Source of the DNA: Candidatus Uhrbacteria bacterium
GTDB lineage: Bacteria > Patescibacteriota > Patescibacteriia > JACPHY01
Length of the DNA: 64,000 nt
Direction: 5' to 3'
Assembly: GCA_016188355.1 (NCBI GenBank)
Contig: JACPHY010000001.1
Location: forward strand, 111,505-175,504
The notes under the pieces were generated by a model that saw only the letters and a program-made list of their open reading frames with translations, was not told where the DNA came from and did no database searches. How positions within the stretch are numbered: position 1 is the first letter of the stretch; every line of letters starts with the position of its first letter. The translations under genes and the position numbers were made by a program. Shown piece after piece: positions 43,058 to 49,601 of the stretch.

Positions 43058-43537
43058 ATGCCGTATGAACGTTCTGTAGGGGCGATTGTGTTCCGTCGCG
43101 GGGAGCCGCCGGAGCAGGAGTTGCATTTTTTGTTGTTGCGATACCCGGGTGGGTATTGGGAGTTCCCGCGTGGGCATGTGGAGGTGGGGGAGCGGGAACA
43201 CACGACAGCGATTCGGGAGATTCAGGAAGAAACAGGCATTACGGATTTGAAATTCTTGCGCGGTTTTCGGGAGCGGTATCGGTTCCATTTTCGTCGTGAA
43301 GGTCAGTCGGTGACCAAGGACGCCATTATCTATCTTGCGGAATCTCCCACGTGGTCAGTGGTGACTTCGGAAGAGCATTTTGGATACGTCTGGGTCTCCT
43401 ATGACGATGCCCTCACGCATCTCAAGTTCGATAACAGCAAGGCCATCATGCGCGCGGCGCACGCGTTTTTTGCGCGTCGTCGTCGCGGCGGTGGTCGCCC
43501 GCGTACCTCGGATGCTGCACGAAAGAGCGCGGCGTAG
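43058..43537 (+). CDS. NUDIX hydrolase (Ap4A-hydrolase-like)
   Basis: Nudix box PRGHVEVGEREHTTAIREIQEETGI. Confidence 0.75.
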   Translation: MPYERSVGAIVFRRGEPPEQELHFLLLRYPGGYWEFPRGHVEVGEREHTTAIREIQEETGITDLKFLRGFRERYRFHFRREGQSVTKDAIIYLAESPTWSVVTSEEHFGYVWVSYDDALTHLKFDNSKAIMRAAHAFFARRRRGGGRPRTSDAARKSAA

Positions 43538-43538
43538 G

Positions 43539-44318
43539 ATGCATGCGGCGTGGGGAGGCATCGTGCTCTGCATGGGCCTTCTGTGGTTGCCGTTTCCCGC
43601 GCACGCGGTGATCGGGTTACCAGATGACGATGATGATGGTATCCCGGATGCATGGGAAGAAATTTTGGGAACATCTCCACAGGTACGCGATACGGATGCG
43701 GATGGACAGCCGGATGGCGTGGAGCTGCGTCAGGGATATGATCCCACACAGCCAAAGCCCGCGCGTCTTTCCGACGCGCAGCGTGCGCGAGATTCGGATG
43801 GGGACGGCTTGGCCGATGTGCAAGAATTTGTCTGGGAATTGAGTCCGCTCGATGCGGATAGCGATGGCGACGGGTACTCCGACGGCGTGGAGATCCGCAA
43901 TGCGCACGATCCGCGGAATCCCGTACCCGTGCCACTCGTGAAGCGGATTGAGGTGCATCGTCGTTCCCAGCAGCTCACGTACGCAGTGGGTCCGTACTTG
44001 TTGGGCACGATGCGGGTATCCACGGGGAAGCCACGAACGCCCACGCCCACAGGAACCTTTCGTATAGCGAGTAAGTCGCCGCGGGCGTGGTCGAGTCTCG
44101 CCCATCTTTGGATGCCCTGGTGGATGAACTTCACGGGATCCGGAGCCTCACCCGGACGTTTTGGCATCCATGAACTTCCGGAATGGCCCAATGGAAAAAA
44201 AGAAGGGGAGAATCACCTCGGCCGACCGGTATCGGGGGGTTGTGTACGTGTGGGGAGGGTGGAGGCAAAAAAGCTCTACGATTGGGCAGATATCGGAACG
44301 GAGATTGTGATTCGGTAG
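43539..44318 (+). CDS. Secreted L,D-transpeptidase (YkuD domain) with Asp-rich calcium-binding-like repeats
   Basis: Signal peptide, DDDDDGIPDAWEE, DTDADGQPDGVE and DADSDGDGYSDGVE repeats, and a C-terminal catalytic HELPEWPNG...SGGCVRV (Cys). Confidence 0.75.
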   Translation: MHAAWGGIVLCMGLLWLPFPAHAVIGLPDDDDDGIPDAWEEILGTSPQVRDTDADGQPDGVELRQGYDPTQPKPARLSDAQRARDSDGDGLADVQEFVWELSPLDADSDGDGYSDGVEIRNAHDPRNPVPVPLVKRIEVHRRSQQLTYAVGPYLLGTMRVSTGKPRTPTPTGTFRIASKSPRAWSSLAHLWMPWWMNFTGSGASPGRFGIHELPEWPNGKKEGENHLGRPVSGGCVRVGRVEAKKLYDWADIGTEIVIR

Positions 44319-44367
44319 GCGCTGCTGGCGTGTCCAGGATTCGCTTCGCTGCGAGTGTCTCTATGTG

Positions 44368-44400
44368 CAACCCTATCGAGGGTTGACATTTTTTGTTTTT
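44368..44400 (+). terminator. Hairpin CAACCCT-ATCG-AGGGTTG followed by a T-rich run. Putative intrinsic terminator of the L,D-transpeptidase gene, overlapping a TTGACA -35-like hexamer for the downstream gene.
   Basis: Perfect 7-bp stem with a 4-nt loop, then ACATTTTTTGTTTTTTG. The alternative reading is the promoter of 44485..45237. Confidence 0.45.
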
Positions 44401-44484
44401 TGTGGCACAAATTTCGTTGTCGTCGCGTGGTGACCAAAAGCCGCGCGGAATGACCAAAGAACCGAACAACGAAGGAGATCGACC

Positions 44485-45237
44485 ATGATCGACCAGAAGA
44501 AGACCGTTCGTGCTGCGTTCGCCAACGTGCAGCTCCGTGATATCCTCAACGCGCACTGCGAGGCCTGCTGGGCGGAGGGCTGGAAAAAGGGAAAGACCGC
44601 GGCGCTCGACAATCCCAACAACCCGTTCGTCGGCGGTCCGCAGGACCTGCTCGTGAAGGGCATCGCGGAGGTCACGAAGCCCGACGGCAGCATGGTCACG
44701 ATCACGAAGCTCACGCGCCTCCGCCTGCGGGAGCTCGACGATGTGAGTCTCGCCATGATCGGCACCGCGATGGGCAAGAATCTCGTCGGCATCCGCAGGA
44801 CCGCGGCGGACAACCCGGACGAGAACGCGCGGAACAAGATACTCGGCTCCGACGTCGTGCATCAAGAGTATGTGGACACGTTCGGTGAGAACGTGGACAA
44901 CGACTACAAGCACTTTCTGAACAACGCCGTCGCCGCAGCCGCCGTGCTCGAGTGCGCGGTGAGCTTCGTCGGCAAGGACCTGACCATCGACGAGCTCGCG
45001 GACGCGATCGAGGCGACGCTCCGGGGTGAGCGTCCGGACCTCGCGCTCCTCTTCTCGCTCGCGTCCCGCTCCTCGTGGATCGGCCGCGCGGTGCAGGATC
45101 AGAGCTGGAAGAACTCCGGCGATTTCGCCTTCTACTTCGGTCTCACCAAGGACGTCGCCGCCATCGACGCGTACGTCGCCGGCCCGGTCCTCGAGCGATT
45201 CGCGCAGGAATTGCGCAGCGGAAAGTACAACAGCTAG
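44485..45237 (+). CDS. Hypothetical protein with strong expression signals (consensus-like promoter, AAGGAG RBS, strong GC3 codon bias)
   Basis: GAAGGAGATCGACC-ATG RBS, a TTGACA hexamer about 95 nt upstream, and nearly uniform G/C third positions unlike neighbouring genes. No domain recognised. Confidence 0.6.
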   Translation: MIDQKKTVRAAFANVQLRDILNAHCEACWAEGWKKGKTAALDNPNNPFVGGPQDLLVKGIAEVTKPDGSMVTITKLTRLRLRELDDVSLAMIGTAMGKNLVGIRRTAADNPDENARNKILGSDVVHQEYVDTFGENVDNDYKHFLNNAVAAAAVLECAVSFVGKDLTIDELADAIEATLRGERPDLALLFSLASRSSWIGRAVQDQSWKNSGDFAFYFGLTKDVAAIDAYVAGPVLERFAQELRSGKYNS

Positions 45238-45403
45238 CTCCCCATCGTCTCCGGACGGTGGTGGGCACGGGAACCTGACTGGACTCGCTTCCAGGAGGGA
45301 ACCCACGGGATATGGATGAGCGCATCGCGCTCGATCTGTATGCCCACCGCCGTTCGGGACCACCGAACGGCGCGAGGGAGCCGCCCATACGTGGGCGGCT
45401 CTT

Positions 45404-48400
45404 TCATATTGGCGTGGCGATGGGATGCTGTTTCGTGAGATATTCGTCTAGCTCCTGCGCGAGGGTGGCGGTGGTCGTGATACGGACACGCGCGCGACGG
45501 TCGCGCAGCGTTCGGAGGAATAGTCGGACGAGGCGACGGTATTCCTCGTAATCTGCGGTTTCTCCAGGTATGGAGCAACCGAAGTCCTTCTTCTGGAACT
45601 CTGCGAGGACATCGGGAGTAACGACGGCAGACATGCAATCAAGAAGGTATCGCGTGCAGGTATTCGGATCATCCTCCAGGGGCACCTGATCCAACGACTC
45701 GACGATCGGTGCAATACACTCGGCGAAGCGGCCGGTATTGCGAACGAGCATGCAGTCGAATCCGTGTTCGAGCGATGCGATGGCTTCCGCGACGGTCCAA
45801 AAACCTCCGTTGCCGATGACCATGACCCGCGGTTGATCCACGCTCAGCCGTGCGTAGAGCGCTTCCATGTATCGAATGTGATGGACGTACGATGCGTTCC
45901 ATCGATCGCGGCCGCGATATTCCCAATTCGCCTCAAATGGAGTGAGGATTGCATCTACGGGGGTGATCGCGAACACCTCGTCTTGGTTTTTTGCCGCGTT
46001 GGTCCATGATTCATTGCCGGGAACATAGGTACTCATGCCCGGGGAGATGGCAAACAGGTGCGCACGTTCGCGTTTGGGGAGGTGACCACACGTACGTTGG
46101 TATTCGACGTTCGCGTGCCCAAAGGTGACTCCCATGCCCGATTGAGTGCCGGGGACGCTCACATTCGCGCGGTGGGCATGGGCGACGGTGAGGACGGCGT
46201 CGGCAAATTGGGAGAGCGGATTTGTGGTGGAGTGGGACATATCTCCAACTGCGCGACAGCCCCCCATGATATTGATGAGTGGGCGGGTGCGATCGAGGCG
46301 CAGGCGTTCCAGGATGGATTCTTCCATGTGGAAAGGAATCGTGCCGGAGGGATCTTCGGTTCGGTGCGTGAGCGCGACCGTACGGATAGTGGCTGGTTTC
46401 TGGGCGAGCGCAGCGGCATAGCCCCATGCCGCATTGCAGTGCTGCGCTGCGGCCTCGAGAAAGGAAGGGCCGAAGATGACTTCATGTGGACGAACTTCCG
46501 GCAGAAAGCGCTGCTCAAAATCCATGGCGGTGGTGATGTTTCCGTAGAGGAAGCGCGCGTAGTGCTGTTGCGCCGTGCGGAGGAGCGTCAGGAGTGCTGC
46601 GGTTGCGGTGGTGCTCCATGCGTCGGCGCTGCCGGTTGTCAGTGCGTCAAATGCGCGCCGCGCGGATGCATGGTAGGAGGTGGCATTCGTCAGGAGAAAG
46701 TGGAGCGCAGTTTCGGCGTAGCTGTGGAAACGTTCTTGCCAGCGGCCGCGTCGCTGCGTATCGATCTGCTCGAGTGTGGTGACGGTATGGGTGAAGTAGC
46801 GAAAGGTGCGGAGCGCGTCCTCTAAATGTTCGTATTGATCCTGCGCAAAGAGGGGGAGCGTTTCGAGGGTGCGCCGGTGTCCCGCATCCAGATGACGATC
46901 TTCGTTGACGAGAATGCGCGCGAGCTGCCCGTCGGCGATCGCTTCTACGAATCCGTGCTGCCCATGCTGCTCGCTGGTCGTATATCGTCCCCGGAAGGCA
47001 ACGAACGTCATGGTGGGTTCTGGGGGAGGAGCGCTGAGGAACGCGCGCGCTGCCTTCGCGGCGTTGTAGTAGTTCGGATCATAGAGGAGCCGAACGCGCG
47101 AACGGTATTCCGTGTTTTGTTCGTGGAGGAGATCATGACTGGAGAATCGGTATGCTTCCCGACGCACGCGTTCTCCAGCAAGTGCGGCGCCAACGGCATC
47201 TCCGATGCGGAGTACGGCAAATGCGCCAGAGGGTCCTTGTTGGAGGAGCGCATGGAACAGGAGATCGGGAATGATGGCGTTCGTACGGACGCAGCGGGCA
47301 CTGAACGCATCGGGATTTCGGAGTGCTTCGGTGGTGAGCTGGGTGAGGGTGGGTGGTTGGTGTTCCTGCAGAGACCAGGCCGCGGCGAACGCATCGAATT
47401 GTGCAGCGGCAACGTGCACGTATGCGGCACGATTATTCTGTTGTTCATGCATGCGGACGCGAGCTTCGTGGTATGCGGCATCCGTCGGCAACCATTGATT
47501 GTGTTGAAGGGTCGCGAGGAGTTCTGCGCTCAGGAGTCCGTACGGAAGATGCGTGTGTAGATATTCCCCATCAATACGAATACCGCTCGCATCGATGGTC
47601 AAGGGAGTGTGACCCCGCCGGGTACGCAGTCCGGTGGCATCTCCGTTGCGTAGAAAATAGGCGGTGAGATGTGCGCGCTCCGTTCGTGCGTGTAGGAGGG
47701 CGGGCTCCTCCTCGAGTGCTCGGAGTGCGGCGATGGATTCGGTGATGGGTGCGGCGCCGATGGTGCGGAATCGTTTTTTGGTGAGGAGTTCCGTGGGGAG
47801 AAATCCTACGTTCGTGAGCATGCGACGGAGGAGTGTCTCGCGATCGGATGTGCCAAAGAGCGCATCGACCATATCGATCCAGCGTGCATCAGGGGGGAGG
47901 TCGATCGCCTGTGCGCACGCGCGGGCGAGTGCGGCGGGGTATGTGGCGGCGGTGACCTCCGGATGTTGGGCGGCGAATTGCAGTCGCTCATAGCAGTCGC
48001 GTGCGTCTCGTGCGGTTTCGAGGAGCTCGGGAATGGGGATGTCGGGAAATTGCTCGAGGGTGACGGGCGATGTCGTGACCGCGTGTTGCGACCAGAGGAA
48101 CAGCGCGCGCACATACGAAATCGTCTCATGGCGTGCGGTGGGGTCGATCAGGAGCGCGCGTAGCGCGCTCCCCTGGTGCCCATTGCAAAATCCAAGAATA
48201 CGCACGGCGGTCGGGAATCGTGCGCAGGTTTCTGGTGATGGGAATAGCGTGCTGTCGGGGGCGATGGGAACGCGCGGTGCGGCATCCTGCACGCGGAGTC
48301 GAAGACGATCCGCGAAGATATCCTCAAGGCGCGCGCGCAGATCATCCTCGGGCGCGTGTATTTCCGGAGTCACGGGCGCGGCGGGTGGTGATTCTGGCGG

Positions 48401-48412
48401 GCGTGATCCCAT
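45404..48412 (-). CDS. 1002-aa protein with a C-terminal Rossmann-fold LOG/SLOG-like domain (aa ~750-1000) and a large uncharacterised N-terminal region
   Basis: C-terminal motifs INIMGGCRAVG ... GTQSGMGVTFGHANV ... VIGNGGFWTVAEAIASLE resemble the LOG-family GGGxxGxMGA and PGGxGTxEE motifs. Nothing is recognisable in the first ~750 aa. Confidence 0.6.
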   Translation of the reverse strand: MGSRPPESPPAAPVTPEIHAPEDDLRARLEDIFADRLRLRVQDAAPRVPIAPDSTLFPSPETCARFPTAVRILGFCNGHQGSALRALLIDPTARHETISYVRALFLWSQHAVTTSPVTLEQFPDIPIPELLETARDARDCYERLQFAAQHPEVTAATYPAALARACAQAIDLPPDARWIDMVDALFGTSDRETLLRRMLTNVGFLPTELLTKKRFRTIGAAPITESIAALRALEEEPALLHARTERAHLTAYFLRNGDATGLRTRRGHTPLTIDASGIRIDGEYLHTHLPYGLLSAELLATLQHNQWLPTDAAYHEARVRMHEQQNNRAAYVHVAAAQFDAFAAAWSLQEHQPPTLTQLTTEALRNPDAFSARCVRTNAIIPDLLFHALLQQGPSGAFAVLRIGDAVGAALAGERVRREAYRFSSHDLLHEQNTEYRSRVRLLYDPNYYNAAKAARAFLSAPPPEPTMTFVAFRGRYTTSEQHGQHGFVEAIADGQLARILVNEDRHLDAGHRRTLETLPLFAQDQYEHLEDALRTFRYFTHTVTTLEQIDTQRRGRWQERFHSYAETALHFLLTNATSYHASARRAFDALTTGSADAWSTTATAALLTLLRTAQQHYARFLYGNITTAMDFEQRFLPEVRPHEVIFGPSFLEAAAQHCNAAWGYAAALAQKPATIRTVALTHRTEDPSGTIPFHMEESILERLRLDRTRPLINIMGGCRAVGDMSHSTTNPLSQFADAVLTVAHAHRANVSVPGTQSGMGVTFGHANVEYQRTCGHLPKRERAHLFAISPGMSTYVPGNESWTNAAKNQDEVFAITPVDAILTPFEANWEYRGRDRWNASYVHHIRYMEALYARLSVDQPRVMVIGNGGFWTVAEAIASLEHGFDCMLVRNTGRFAECIAPIVESLDQVPLEDDPNTCTRYLLDCMSAVVTPDVLAEFQKKDFGCSIPGETADYEEYRRLVRLFLRTLRDRRARVRITTTATLAQELDEYLTKQHPIATPI

Positions 48413-48635
48413 GTGCGTCCTGCGTATTACGTTGCACTGCGCGCCGTGGCTCGGTCACGGCCAATCTGGTATTCTCCAGCATACCATGCCATTTTTATGG
48501 ATCGGTAGCGCATAGTCATTGACTGTTGTGCAGATACCTGGTACAGTGCGGTTGTTCATTTTCTTGAGAAAAAACGATACCAGTGCGTGGTGACCGTGCG
48601 GTGGCAGGCGATGCGCACTGAGGAGGAGACCGATA

Positions 48636-49601
48636 ATGGAACCGAGTAATCATGATGCTCCGGTGGTGCGGAGCGGCCGGCCGAAACCGGTTCTGCTCGC
48701 GGCGTTGACGCTCATCGGATTGGTGGTCGGCATCATCGTGTACGCGAAGGGATGTGGCGGCAGCAGCGACACGAAAGACGCGGGGTCGGATCGTGCACCG
48801 CCCGCAGCGCGCACCGTGCTCATGGATGCGTGTCTCGGTCTCTGGGGAAGTACCCAGGAGAACGCGCATGCGCGTTGGGACGCGGTGCGGACGGCGATGG
48901 CGCAGTACGCCGAACGTGACGATGCGTTGCCGGGGCTTGCGCAGATGACGGCGGGTCGACCGCTGGAAAGTGGGCTGGCTGTGTGTCAGACGCTCCTCAT
49001 GCAGGCACCGAGTGGCGATGCGCGGGCCGGGGCGTCGGGACCGATCGAACCGAGTGAGGTGCAGCGGGTTGCGTGGTTGCTCCTGCAGGATGCGGATCTC
49101 CGCGCATTGCTCGATGATGAGTATCGTCATGCGTGTGATGGGGAGCTCATGTACGCCGAGGCGAAAGTGACGGAACCGTCGCAGCCATGGTCGGGCGATC
49201 AGCGCGAAGCGTGGACGGAAGAGTGCGTACAGTGGCATCGTGGGAGTCGTTCGGGACAGGTGCCCGCATTGGTTCCTCCGCCTGCAGATGCGTCTCCCTC
49301 GATTCCGGTCGCGCCGCCTCCTGCGGAGCCTGCGATTCCCGCATGCGCAACGGAGGTGCTCCGGACGCACCACGATGCGATCGTCGATGCTAATGGCGAC
49401 CACGAGCGTGTATTGAAGTACGCGCGCGCGCTCGCCGGGTGCACGGCCGCAGCGAAACCGTGGGCGACGCTCGGATTGAGCGACGCGGATGCATTCTTCG
49501 ACCAGTTCGTGGCACCCATCAACCGCAAGCATCACTGGCTGCAGGAAGAGCAGCCCGACCTCTACGACGCTATCCTATCGCGGTGGTCGGCCGACGGTTG
49601 A
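48636..49601 (+). CDS. Hypothetical membrane-anchored protein (divergent from the 1002-aa gene)
   Basis: N-terminal TM (VLLAALTLIGLVVGIIVYA), a Pro/Ala-rich segment, 321 aa. Confidence 0.45.
   Translation: MEPSNHDAPVVRSGRPKPVLLAALTLIGLVVGIIVYAKGCGGSSDTKDAGSDRAPPAARTVLMDACLGLWGSTQENAHARWDAVRTAMAQYAERDDALPGLAQMTAGRPLESGLAVCQTLLMQAPSGDARAGASGPIEPSEVQRVAWLLLQDADLRALLDDEYRHACDGELMYAEAKVTEPSQPWSGDQREAWTEECVQWHRGSRSGQVPALVPPPADASPSIPVAPPPAEPAIPACATEVLRTHHDAIVDANGDHERVLKYARALAGCTAAAKPWATLGLSDADAFFDQFVAPINRKHHWLQEEQPDLYDAILSRWSADG

Follow-up and report, generated by a model that had tools for sequence, protein, structure and literature searches.

The gene at positions 45404-48412 (minus strand) of a 64,000-nucleotide stretch of Candidatus Uhrbacteria DNA, the whole of which is referred to here as the window, encodes a soluble, cytoplasmic protein of 1002 amino acids that consists of two modules: a large N-terminal module (N-module) and a C-terminal domain of the SLOG (SMF/DprA-LOG) superfamily. 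We call this protein T and its relatives, found at loci numbered L004, L006 and so on, T homologs. Sequence profile and structure model place the C-terminal domain in the LSDAT subfamily of SLOG, with the MHR1/2 domains of TRPM channels as its nearest known structures, and T homologs are accompanied in a non-random manner by genes for proteins resembling nucleoside 2-deoxyribosyltransferase (NDT-like). By building and examining a family alignment, structure models and the gene neighbourhoods of T homologs, we tentatively propose that T couples a SLOG domain, sensing a nucleotide or a derivative of nicotinamide adenine dinucleotide (NAD), to an output module, and that it is tied to nucleoside and NAD salvage in a metabolic sensing or processing role; we regard this as possible, if somewhat short of probable.

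As in an initial annotation of the window, the gene encodes 1002 residues; it is an uninterrupted, ATG-started open reading frame (ORF), the coordinates including the stop codon. The G+C content of the window is about 60%, at which many long spurious antisense ORFs arise, and the length of an ORF is therefore poor proof of a gene. The reality of T is instead argued from identical copies of the protein called on two independent Logan metagenome contigs, from 96 relatives, and from conserved blocks along the full length of an alignment of 34 family sequences (alignment A1, to which all counts out of 34 below refer). The protein is computed to be soluble, with a mass of 112 kDa and an isoelectric point (pI) of 6.3, and a 19-residue hydropathy scan found no hydrophobic or transmembrane segment (maximum KD19 of 1.31). 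The AlphaFold2 model of full-length T, built on A1, has a mean predicted local distance difference test score (pLDDT) of 88 and a predicted template modelling score (pTM) of 0.85; this model and that of the N-module alone are both confident, and the two-module architecture is kept end to end in more than 30 clusters. Only a leader rich in proline and serine (residues 1-19, positions 48356-48412; this and all further features of T lie on the minus strand) is predicted to be disordered, with pLDDT below 50 and with low conservation and occupancy in the alignment.

The SLOG domain, a predicted Rossmannoid domain, spans residues 694-905 (45698-46333) and is followed by a helical extension past its core (residues 906-1002, 45407-45697), with helices at 916-930, 933-944, 953-971 and 984-995, a strand at 976-980, and conserved D943-F944-G945 and R959. 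The sole Pfam match of T is PF18171 (LSDAT_prok, "SLOG in TRPM, prokaryote"): full-length T reaches 22.7 bits, just below the 25.4-bit gathering cut-off, and its last 299 residues alone score 27.2 bits, above it. The same family matches 31 of the 34 relatives at E<0.01 (best 3.3e-11), and three relatives also match LSDAT_euk (PF18139). Searched as a single sequence, T found no match in NCBIfam, PADLOC, PHROGs or the PDB sequences; searched against all PDB sequences, the family profile retrieved essentially TRPM channels only, including TRPM2 and TRPM8, the best match being 7aov, the crystal structure of zebrafish TRPM2 MHR1/2 (E 1.1e-5). Comparison of the T model with known structures gave a consistent picture: TRPM MHR1/2 is nearest, with about 270 (268-278) residues aligned, followed by TM1055 (score 12.8), a Moco carrier protein (11.4), LOG (11.3) and YgdH/PpnN (11.0), and further by the SLOG domain of ThsA with 3'cADPR (10.4), DprA (10.0) and YpsA (9.4). 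As the TRPM alignments exceed the core of about 210 residues, part of the helical extension may, to judge from the models, belong to the fold common with TRPM. The LOG/SLOG-like Rossmann domain proposed in the initial annotation thus stands, narrowed to the LSDAT subfamily; the LOG family itself (PF03641) has no match at E<=10, either to the whole protein or to the C-terminus alone.

The most conserved stretches of the T family are four predicted nucleotide-site motifs, three of which had been quoted in the initial annotation. Residues 715-720 (IMGGCR, 46253-46270) form the glycine loop following the first strand, pairing with LISVTGG of TRPM2; G717 is kept in 33 and G718 in all of the 34 sequences. 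Residues 754-761 (PGTQSGMG, 46130-46153) are the counterpart of GGGxxGxMG in LOG and of GGTHAGVM in TRPM2; P754, G755, T756, Q757, S758, G759 and G761 are each kept in at least 31 of 34 sequences, and the motif is specific enough to pull the family out of genome and metagenome collections. Residues 867-876 (GNGGFWTVAE, 45785-45814) correspond to PGGxGTxxE in LOG and to DGGPGTLNT in TRPM2, with N868 conserved in 32, G869 in 34, G870 in 33 and E876 in 30 sequences, and the pattern NGGxx(T/S)xxE is retained in seven of eight distant relatives. By motif register alone, E876 matches the glutamate of the LOG motif, where TRPM2 has a threonine. The fourth motif, TGRFAE (residues 893-898, 45719-45736), is of the LSDAT G-R type and pairs with GSGRLAD of TRPM2; G894 is invariant, R895 is kept in 33 of 34 sequences, and in a column-by-column comparison with 7aov and 6drj R895 aligns with R334, the GSGR arginine of zebrafish TRPM2. 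R278 and R334 of the zebrafish channel define its N-terminal ADP-ribose pocket (PMC7555694). As far as an alignment can tell, the nucleotide-site motifs of the T SLOG domain are therefore intact, comprising the glycine loops, NGGxxTxxE and the arginine that contacts ADP-ribose in TRPM2. A further arginine, R855 (31 of 34 sequences), lies 13 residues ahead of the NGGxxTxxE motif; we compare it, by position only, with the arginine of the LOG motif MHxRK, which lies 15 residues before PGGxGTxxE.

The N-module (residues 20-692, 46337-48355) is mostly alpha-helical, and comprises in addition a three-stranded beta-meander (271-289), a three-stranded sheet (470-503), a long four-helix bundle (about 524-636) and strands at 639-647 and 674-682. 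Modelled alone with the family alignment it reaches a pLDDT of 89.7 and a pTM of 0.88, i.e., it is ordered. The initial annotation had put this region at about 750 residues and the C-terminal part at about 250; the proper figures are about 690, and about 310 for the SLOG domain with its helical tail. Its description as a region without recognisable domain held throughout: no Pfam family matches it at E<0.01 in any of the 34 family members, searches of NCBIfam, PADLOC, PHROGs and PDB sequences returned nothing over it, and structure comparison matched neither a known fold nor a known toxic effector fold. A histidine-phosphotransfer (HPt) assignment was considered and rejected, as the matches were to generic four-helix bundles of about 100 residues at 6-12% identity, standing beside cytochrome b562 and designed bundles.

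Conservation within the N-module is concentrated in polar residues (R85, R246, D274, H288, E316, R320, D383, Y436, R439, Y449, K453, H486, E490, R499 and E531). The beta-meander segment of residues 271-293 (LTIDASGIRIDGEYLHTHLPYGL; positions 47534-47602; strands 271-273, 278-281 and 286-289) holds four invariant residues, D274, G277, H288 and P290, in the 34 sequences and again in 20 locus-derived sequences, and is a candidate functional site of the module. Because conserved or invariant aspartate, histidine, arginine, glutamate and tyrosine residues are unusually many, the alignment suggests that the module harbours a site for ligand binding or catalysis, of a type not yet described, rather than being a passive scaffold.

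T shares features with several known systems but lacks features that define ThsA proteins, LOG enzymes and TRPM channels, and for this reason we assign it to none of these three. The LSDAT family (PF18171 LSDAT_prok and PF18139 LSDAT_euk) was placed in the SLOG superfamily by Burroughs et al. 2015, as cited in PMC13143021 and PMC6459960. The SLOG domain of T has, on model and alignment, the Rossmannoid fold and all signature loops of this family, its G-R motif reading TGRFAE where TRPM has GSGRLAD; fold, glycine loops, Pfam match, TRPM kinship and G-R motif, the features accessible in silico, were all found. T differs in carrying the domain C-terminally, behind a 690-residue module without a Pfam model, and in occurring mainly in Patescibacteria. 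Identity to the MHR1/2 regions of TRPM2, TRPM5 and TRPM8 (PDB 7aov, 8sr7, 9p3r) is 12-17%. TRPM2 is a SLOG-gated channel (PMC13143021, PMC7555694), whereas T has no six-transmembrane channel, no transmembrane segment and no detected MHR3/4, and its domain order is reversed. ThsA of the Thoeris system is a SIR2-SLOG or TM-SLOG effector that accompanies the TIR protein ThsB, its SIR2-SLOG form being activated by isomers of cyclic ADP-ribose (cADPR; PMC11204291); T differs in lacking a SIR2, transmembrane or macro effector domain and an adjacent TIR gene, in its SLOG subfamily, in the convergent orientation of its partner in the query's clade, and in its context of salvage and housekeeping genes. 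The LOG phosphoribohydrolases and PpnN/YgdH are set apart by the missing PF03641 match and by unrelated extra domains, and YpsA and DprA by other signature motifs (GxD/E in YpsA), by single-domain organization or other partner domains, and by other lineages. We know of no earlier description of the N-module fused to LSDAT, and among the papers searched, none mentions PF18171 or PF15891 and none ties SLOG to Patescibacteria. As far as could be established, then, three things are new: the fusion of LSDAT to a large module without known fold, its occurrence mainly in Patescibacteria, and the repeated occurrence of PF15891 and of two unnamed small families beside it.

The T family is rare, patchy and mainly found in Patescibacteria. 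An exhaustive HMMER scan covering 1.84 billion cluster representatives found 96 relatives at E<=1e-3 and 61 at E<=1e-30, many of them 950-1050 residues long and aligned end to end at 30-41% identity, so the initial description of T as an orphan does not hold. A word-indexed homolog search, started from T alone or from the 34-sequence alignment, returned only T itself, being too insensitive at identities of 40% or less. Each cluster contains one to three sequences among about 15 billion proteins, and the sole name given in any source is "hypothetical protein". A scan of genome collections yielded 16 loci, 12 of which are titled as metagenome-assembled genomes (MAGs) of the Patescibacteria group (Parcubacteria, Uhrbacteria, "Saccharibacteria") or just "bacterium"; the remaining four (L010, L011, L014 and L017) are titled Gammaproteobacteria (three) or Lentisphaerae (one), and are probably mislabelled or mis-binned MAG contigs. 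A scan of metagenomes added 17 loci. Searches of phages and plasmids (tblastn) and of IMG/VR found no copies of T, and a Foldseek search of BFVD found no viral structural match. Two distant relatives (L043:5195-9186 and L044:189-2999) lie in DNA of 22-25% G+C and contain 42-45 in-frame TGA codons that are read through under genetic code 25; UGA is therefore a sense codon in both genomes, as would fit Gracilibacteria or Absconditabacteria.

Several variants of the architecture were observed. One genome carries tandem paralogs that are 35% identical (L004:6720-9743 and L004:9911-12901). At L018, on the same contig as L035, the N-module and the SLOG domain are encoded by separate overlapping ORFs in different frames (L018:8119-10041 and L018:9887-10882), an arrangement that may be natural or may stem from a frameshift in this one assembly. 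A homolog of 745 residues (L014:9941-12178) has lost profile positions of about 335-596, the middle of the N-module.

Evidence for a role in salvage comes from the neighbourhoods of T homologs. A Pfam scan of 122 neighbouring genes, three on each side at 25 non-redundant loci, matched 83 families, of which the 25 most frequent are considered here. PF15891 (Nuc_deoxyri_tr2), the family of the NDT-like proteins, leads with 8 genes, ahead of His_Phos_1 (4), IU_nuc_hydro (2) and NUDIX (2) and a background of housekeeping families. The initial annotation had associated the domain with nucleotide-signalling conflict systems; no TIR, SIR2, SMODS, CD-NTase, cyclase, SLATT or nuclease family is among the 25 most frequent, PADLOC-DB 2.0 gave zero matches for T and for ten partner proteins, and the phage, plasmid and viral searches were negative as described above. 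The setting it suggested is accordingly not borne out. It had also treated homologs consistently embedded in a known housekeeping pathway as a point that would speak against its reading; this holds in part, as nucleoside- and NAD-salvage neighbours do recur, while T belongs to no fixed pathway operon and its family is too scarce for core metabolism. Synteny of the flanks is lacking across the 25 loci, and no conserved upstream operon partner was found in the query's own clade.

The adjacency of NDT-like genes to T is non-random. In 285 kb of flanking DNA, all ten NDT-like genes lie within 800 nucleotides (nt) of T, nine of them as immediate neighbours, mostly convergent with it and separated by 126-243 nt between the 3' ends; among the neighbour associations this is the one that was tested against position. 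The T clades with an adjacent NDT-like gene are only about 30-37% identical to one another, and in distant SLOG relatives (L043, L036, L038 and L034) such a gene stands directly upstream on the same strand. At L043 it is accompanied by genes for a PnuC-type transporter of nicotinamide mononucleotide (NMN) or nicotinamide riboside (NR) and for an AAA_28 (NadR-kinase-like) protein, and at L037 the classical PF05014 family is found three genes upstream. Other distant relatives neighbour thymidine kinase (L036), an IMPDH/GMP-reductase-like gene (L038), Ham1 (L040), or ThyA/DHFR, Lyase_1 and Amidohydro_1 (L041). The NDT-like partner keeps an invariant glutamate in the motif SILEATE.

Two further small families recur beside T. 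In the window, a gene for a 250-residue protein (44485-45237, plus strand; "W250-type") is convergent with T, with 166 nt between the 3' ends, and homologs of this gene are likewise downstream and convergent at L016, L004, L025 and L010 (which has two copies), loci that represent distinct deep clades of T. Its family conserves W33, G50, H126, N147, D213 and D228, and searches with the protein against Pfam, PHROGs, PADLOC, NCBIfam and PDB were all negative; the adjacency of this protein makes it a candidate partner of T. A third family, here "type C" (about 150-175 residues; motifs INAAG and ANATWxAGQPFR...KDWVQ), adjoins the genes of SLOG proteins in varying orientation (L009:13008-13532, L026:1916-2395, L037:1649-2104, L041:10117-10581 and L045:1970-2452) and has no database match. 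Kinship between the 250-residue and "type C" families is not supported: their motifs are collinear, but the hhalign comparison is not significant (E 0.11, probability 0.5%). At about two thirds of the loci, T adjoins a gene from one of the three partner families. At L006, the convergent downstream neighbour that replaces the small partner is a protein of 607 residues with a Pol-beta-type nucleotidyltransferase domain (L006:13225-15048, minus strand).

Taken together, these observations lead us to the sensing reading introduced at the outset, which would work as follows. The SLOG domain would bind a small molecule containing ribose phosphate, most likely an NAD-derived compound (ADP-ribose, or one related to NMN or NR) or a nucleoside monophosphate, and its occupancy would control, or couple to, the N-module of about 690 residues, on the principle of ThsA and TRPM that the SLOG domain senses and another module acts. 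T would work with a small partner encoded alongside, most often an NDT-like N-glycosidase or transferase and in the window the 250-residue protein, which may make, remove or compete for the SLOG ligand. The setting would be the scavenging of nucleosides and NAD needed by bacteria with reduced genomes, rather than a phage-defence island. With their tiny genomes, bacteria of the candidate phyla radiation (CPR) depend on their hosts for nucleotides and cofactors, which they must scavenge; it is this dependence, together with the salvage-rich context, that makes us prefer a metabolic role. Several points weigh on the other side. TRPM2, ThsA and LOG are the basis from which the ligand class is extrapolated, and the N-module might be a scaffold rather than an enzyme. 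The window itself has no NDT-like gene, and at about one third of the loci no member of the three partner families adjoins T. Within the query's clade, T and its partner gene converge and are not co-transcribed, so that adjacency is what links the two. The looser associations (thymidine kinase, ThyA and the like) may be due to chance, since small genomes are comparatively rich in genes of nucleotide metabolism. The rarity and patchiness of the family, its tandem duplication (L004) and its alternative partners fit accessory or conflict genes better than core salvage.

These last traits, together with the split gene and the internal deletion, are common in conflict systems and lend some weight to a Thoeris-like, two-gene system of immunity or abortive infection, in which the NDT-like enzyme, with its TIR-like fold and catalytic glutamate, would make a nucleotide-derived signal on infection, the SLOG domain would sense it, and the N-module would be a new effector harming the cell or the invader. 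PMC11204291 describes the SLOG domain of ThsA as sensing TIR-made cADPR isomers, and the active sites of NDT and DNPH1 as resembling those of ThsB TIR domains; the invariant glutamate of the NDT-like partner would fit such a role. Yet PADLOC is negative for T and its partners, TIR, SIR2, SMODS, CD-NTase, SLATT and nuclease families are absent from the 25 most frequent neighbour families, phage, plasmid and viral contigs hold no copies, the flanks are housekeeping or salvage genes rather than defence islands, the partner is convergent and not operonic in the query's clade, and the N-module has no known toxic effector fold; we consider an immune system of this kind unlikely. A broader form of the idea, to which we give equally little credence, is that T and its small neighbour constitute a two-component nucleotide-signalling system that has escaped notice in Patescibacteria, resembling Thoeris and serving in defence or in the interaction of episymbiont and host: the partner would make or destroy a ribose-containing signal, the TRPM-type SLOG domain would read it, and the N-module, with its invariant Asp/His site, would be a new effector enzyme.

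The salvage-rich neighbourhood would also fit a SLOG domain that is itself a nucleotide N-glycosidase (phosphoribohydrolase) like LOG or PpnN, freeing base and ribose-5-phosphate for salvage, with the N-module in a regulatory or oligomerising role as in PpnN: the neighbours include other enzymes of glycosidic bonds (PF15891, PF05014 and IU_nuc_hydro), NGGxxTxxE876 keeps the threonine and glutamate of the LOG motif in register, and the conserved R855 lies near the position of the MHxRK arginine. The glutamate does not discriminate, since the motif glutamate of sensor SLOG domains also serves ribose binding in ThsA structures. Against catalysis by the SLOG domain stand the lack of a LOG Pfam match even at E<=10 and a much closer kinship to the non-catalytic TRPM domains, and a purely regulatory role would leave the heavy polar conservation of the 690-residue N-module unexplained, so this explanation also appears rather improbable. 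The reading we favour least is that T serves as a structural protein or scaffold, its SLOG domain being a degenerate, ligand-free interaction module and its neighbourhoods inherited synteny of no functional meaning. Some TRPM SLOG domains do have no known nucleotide ligand, the N-module is largely helical with bundle-like subdomains, and one third of the loci have no recurrent partner. However, at 25-40% identity 30-34 of 34 sequences still keep the nucleotide-site motifs, which speaks for a functional pocket, and the NDT-like gene remains adjacent across deep clades although its orientation changes, which is hard to explain by inertia; a mere scaffold is thus very unlikely.

T is a testable link to both TRPM ligand sensing and nucleotide scavenging in CPR bacteria, and for a more surprising mechanism there is so far no evidence. 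A conserved protein of 112 kDa is a large investment for bacteria with such tiny genomes, and may reveal how scavenged nucleotides are sensed or processed. Its SLOG domain is the nearest bacterial structural relative to the ADP-ribose-sensing MHR1/2 of TRPM2 found in this analysis and, because the key arginine is kept, could offer a soluble and tractable system for studying how MHR1/2 arose and which ligand chemistry it uses. The N-module, with a confident model, no matched known fold and an invariant site containing aspartate and histidine, is a candidate for a new family of enzymes or effectors. If T is a plain salvage regulator, the value lies mainly in annotation: about 100 clusters of "hypothetical protein" and two unnamed partner families gain context. 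If instead the two-component signalling reading were true, no bacterial domain known from a working sensor-effector protein would stand closer to the TRPM ligand-sensing domain than that of T.

Within the window, T is flanked by housekeeping genes: on one side PolX-PHP, a methyltransferase, a NUDIX gene (two genes from T), a YkuD L,D-transpeptidase and the 250-residue gene, and on the other side a membrane-anchored protein of 321 residues, PBP1A and QueA. A TIR gene is absent from the window. Strong expression signals had been attributed to a gene neighbouring T, and a simple promoter and terminator scan there revealed nothing beyond chance. Near its N-terminus (around residue 19), the divergent 321-residue neighbour (48636-49601, plus strand; pI 4.9) has a single, strongly hydrophobic segment; it matches no family, does not recur beside T homologs, and probably has no bearing on the findings on T. 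In the L,D-transpeptidase (43380-44318, plus strand), bacterial TSP3 (thrombospondin type 3-like) repeats precede the catalytic YkuD domain. The long ORFs of the window are mostly on the plus strand, the T gene being among the few on the minus strand, and GC skew is positive in every 2-kb bin of positions 1-64000, such that the cumulative skew climbs monotonically. Two antisense ORFs, 44131-45363 (minus strand, 410 residues) and 48516-49535 (minus strand, 339 residues), overlap the genuine genes encoded on the plus strand at 44485-45237 and 48636-49601, respectively; they are artefacts of high G+C content, of a kind that misleads naive gene calling by longest ORF.

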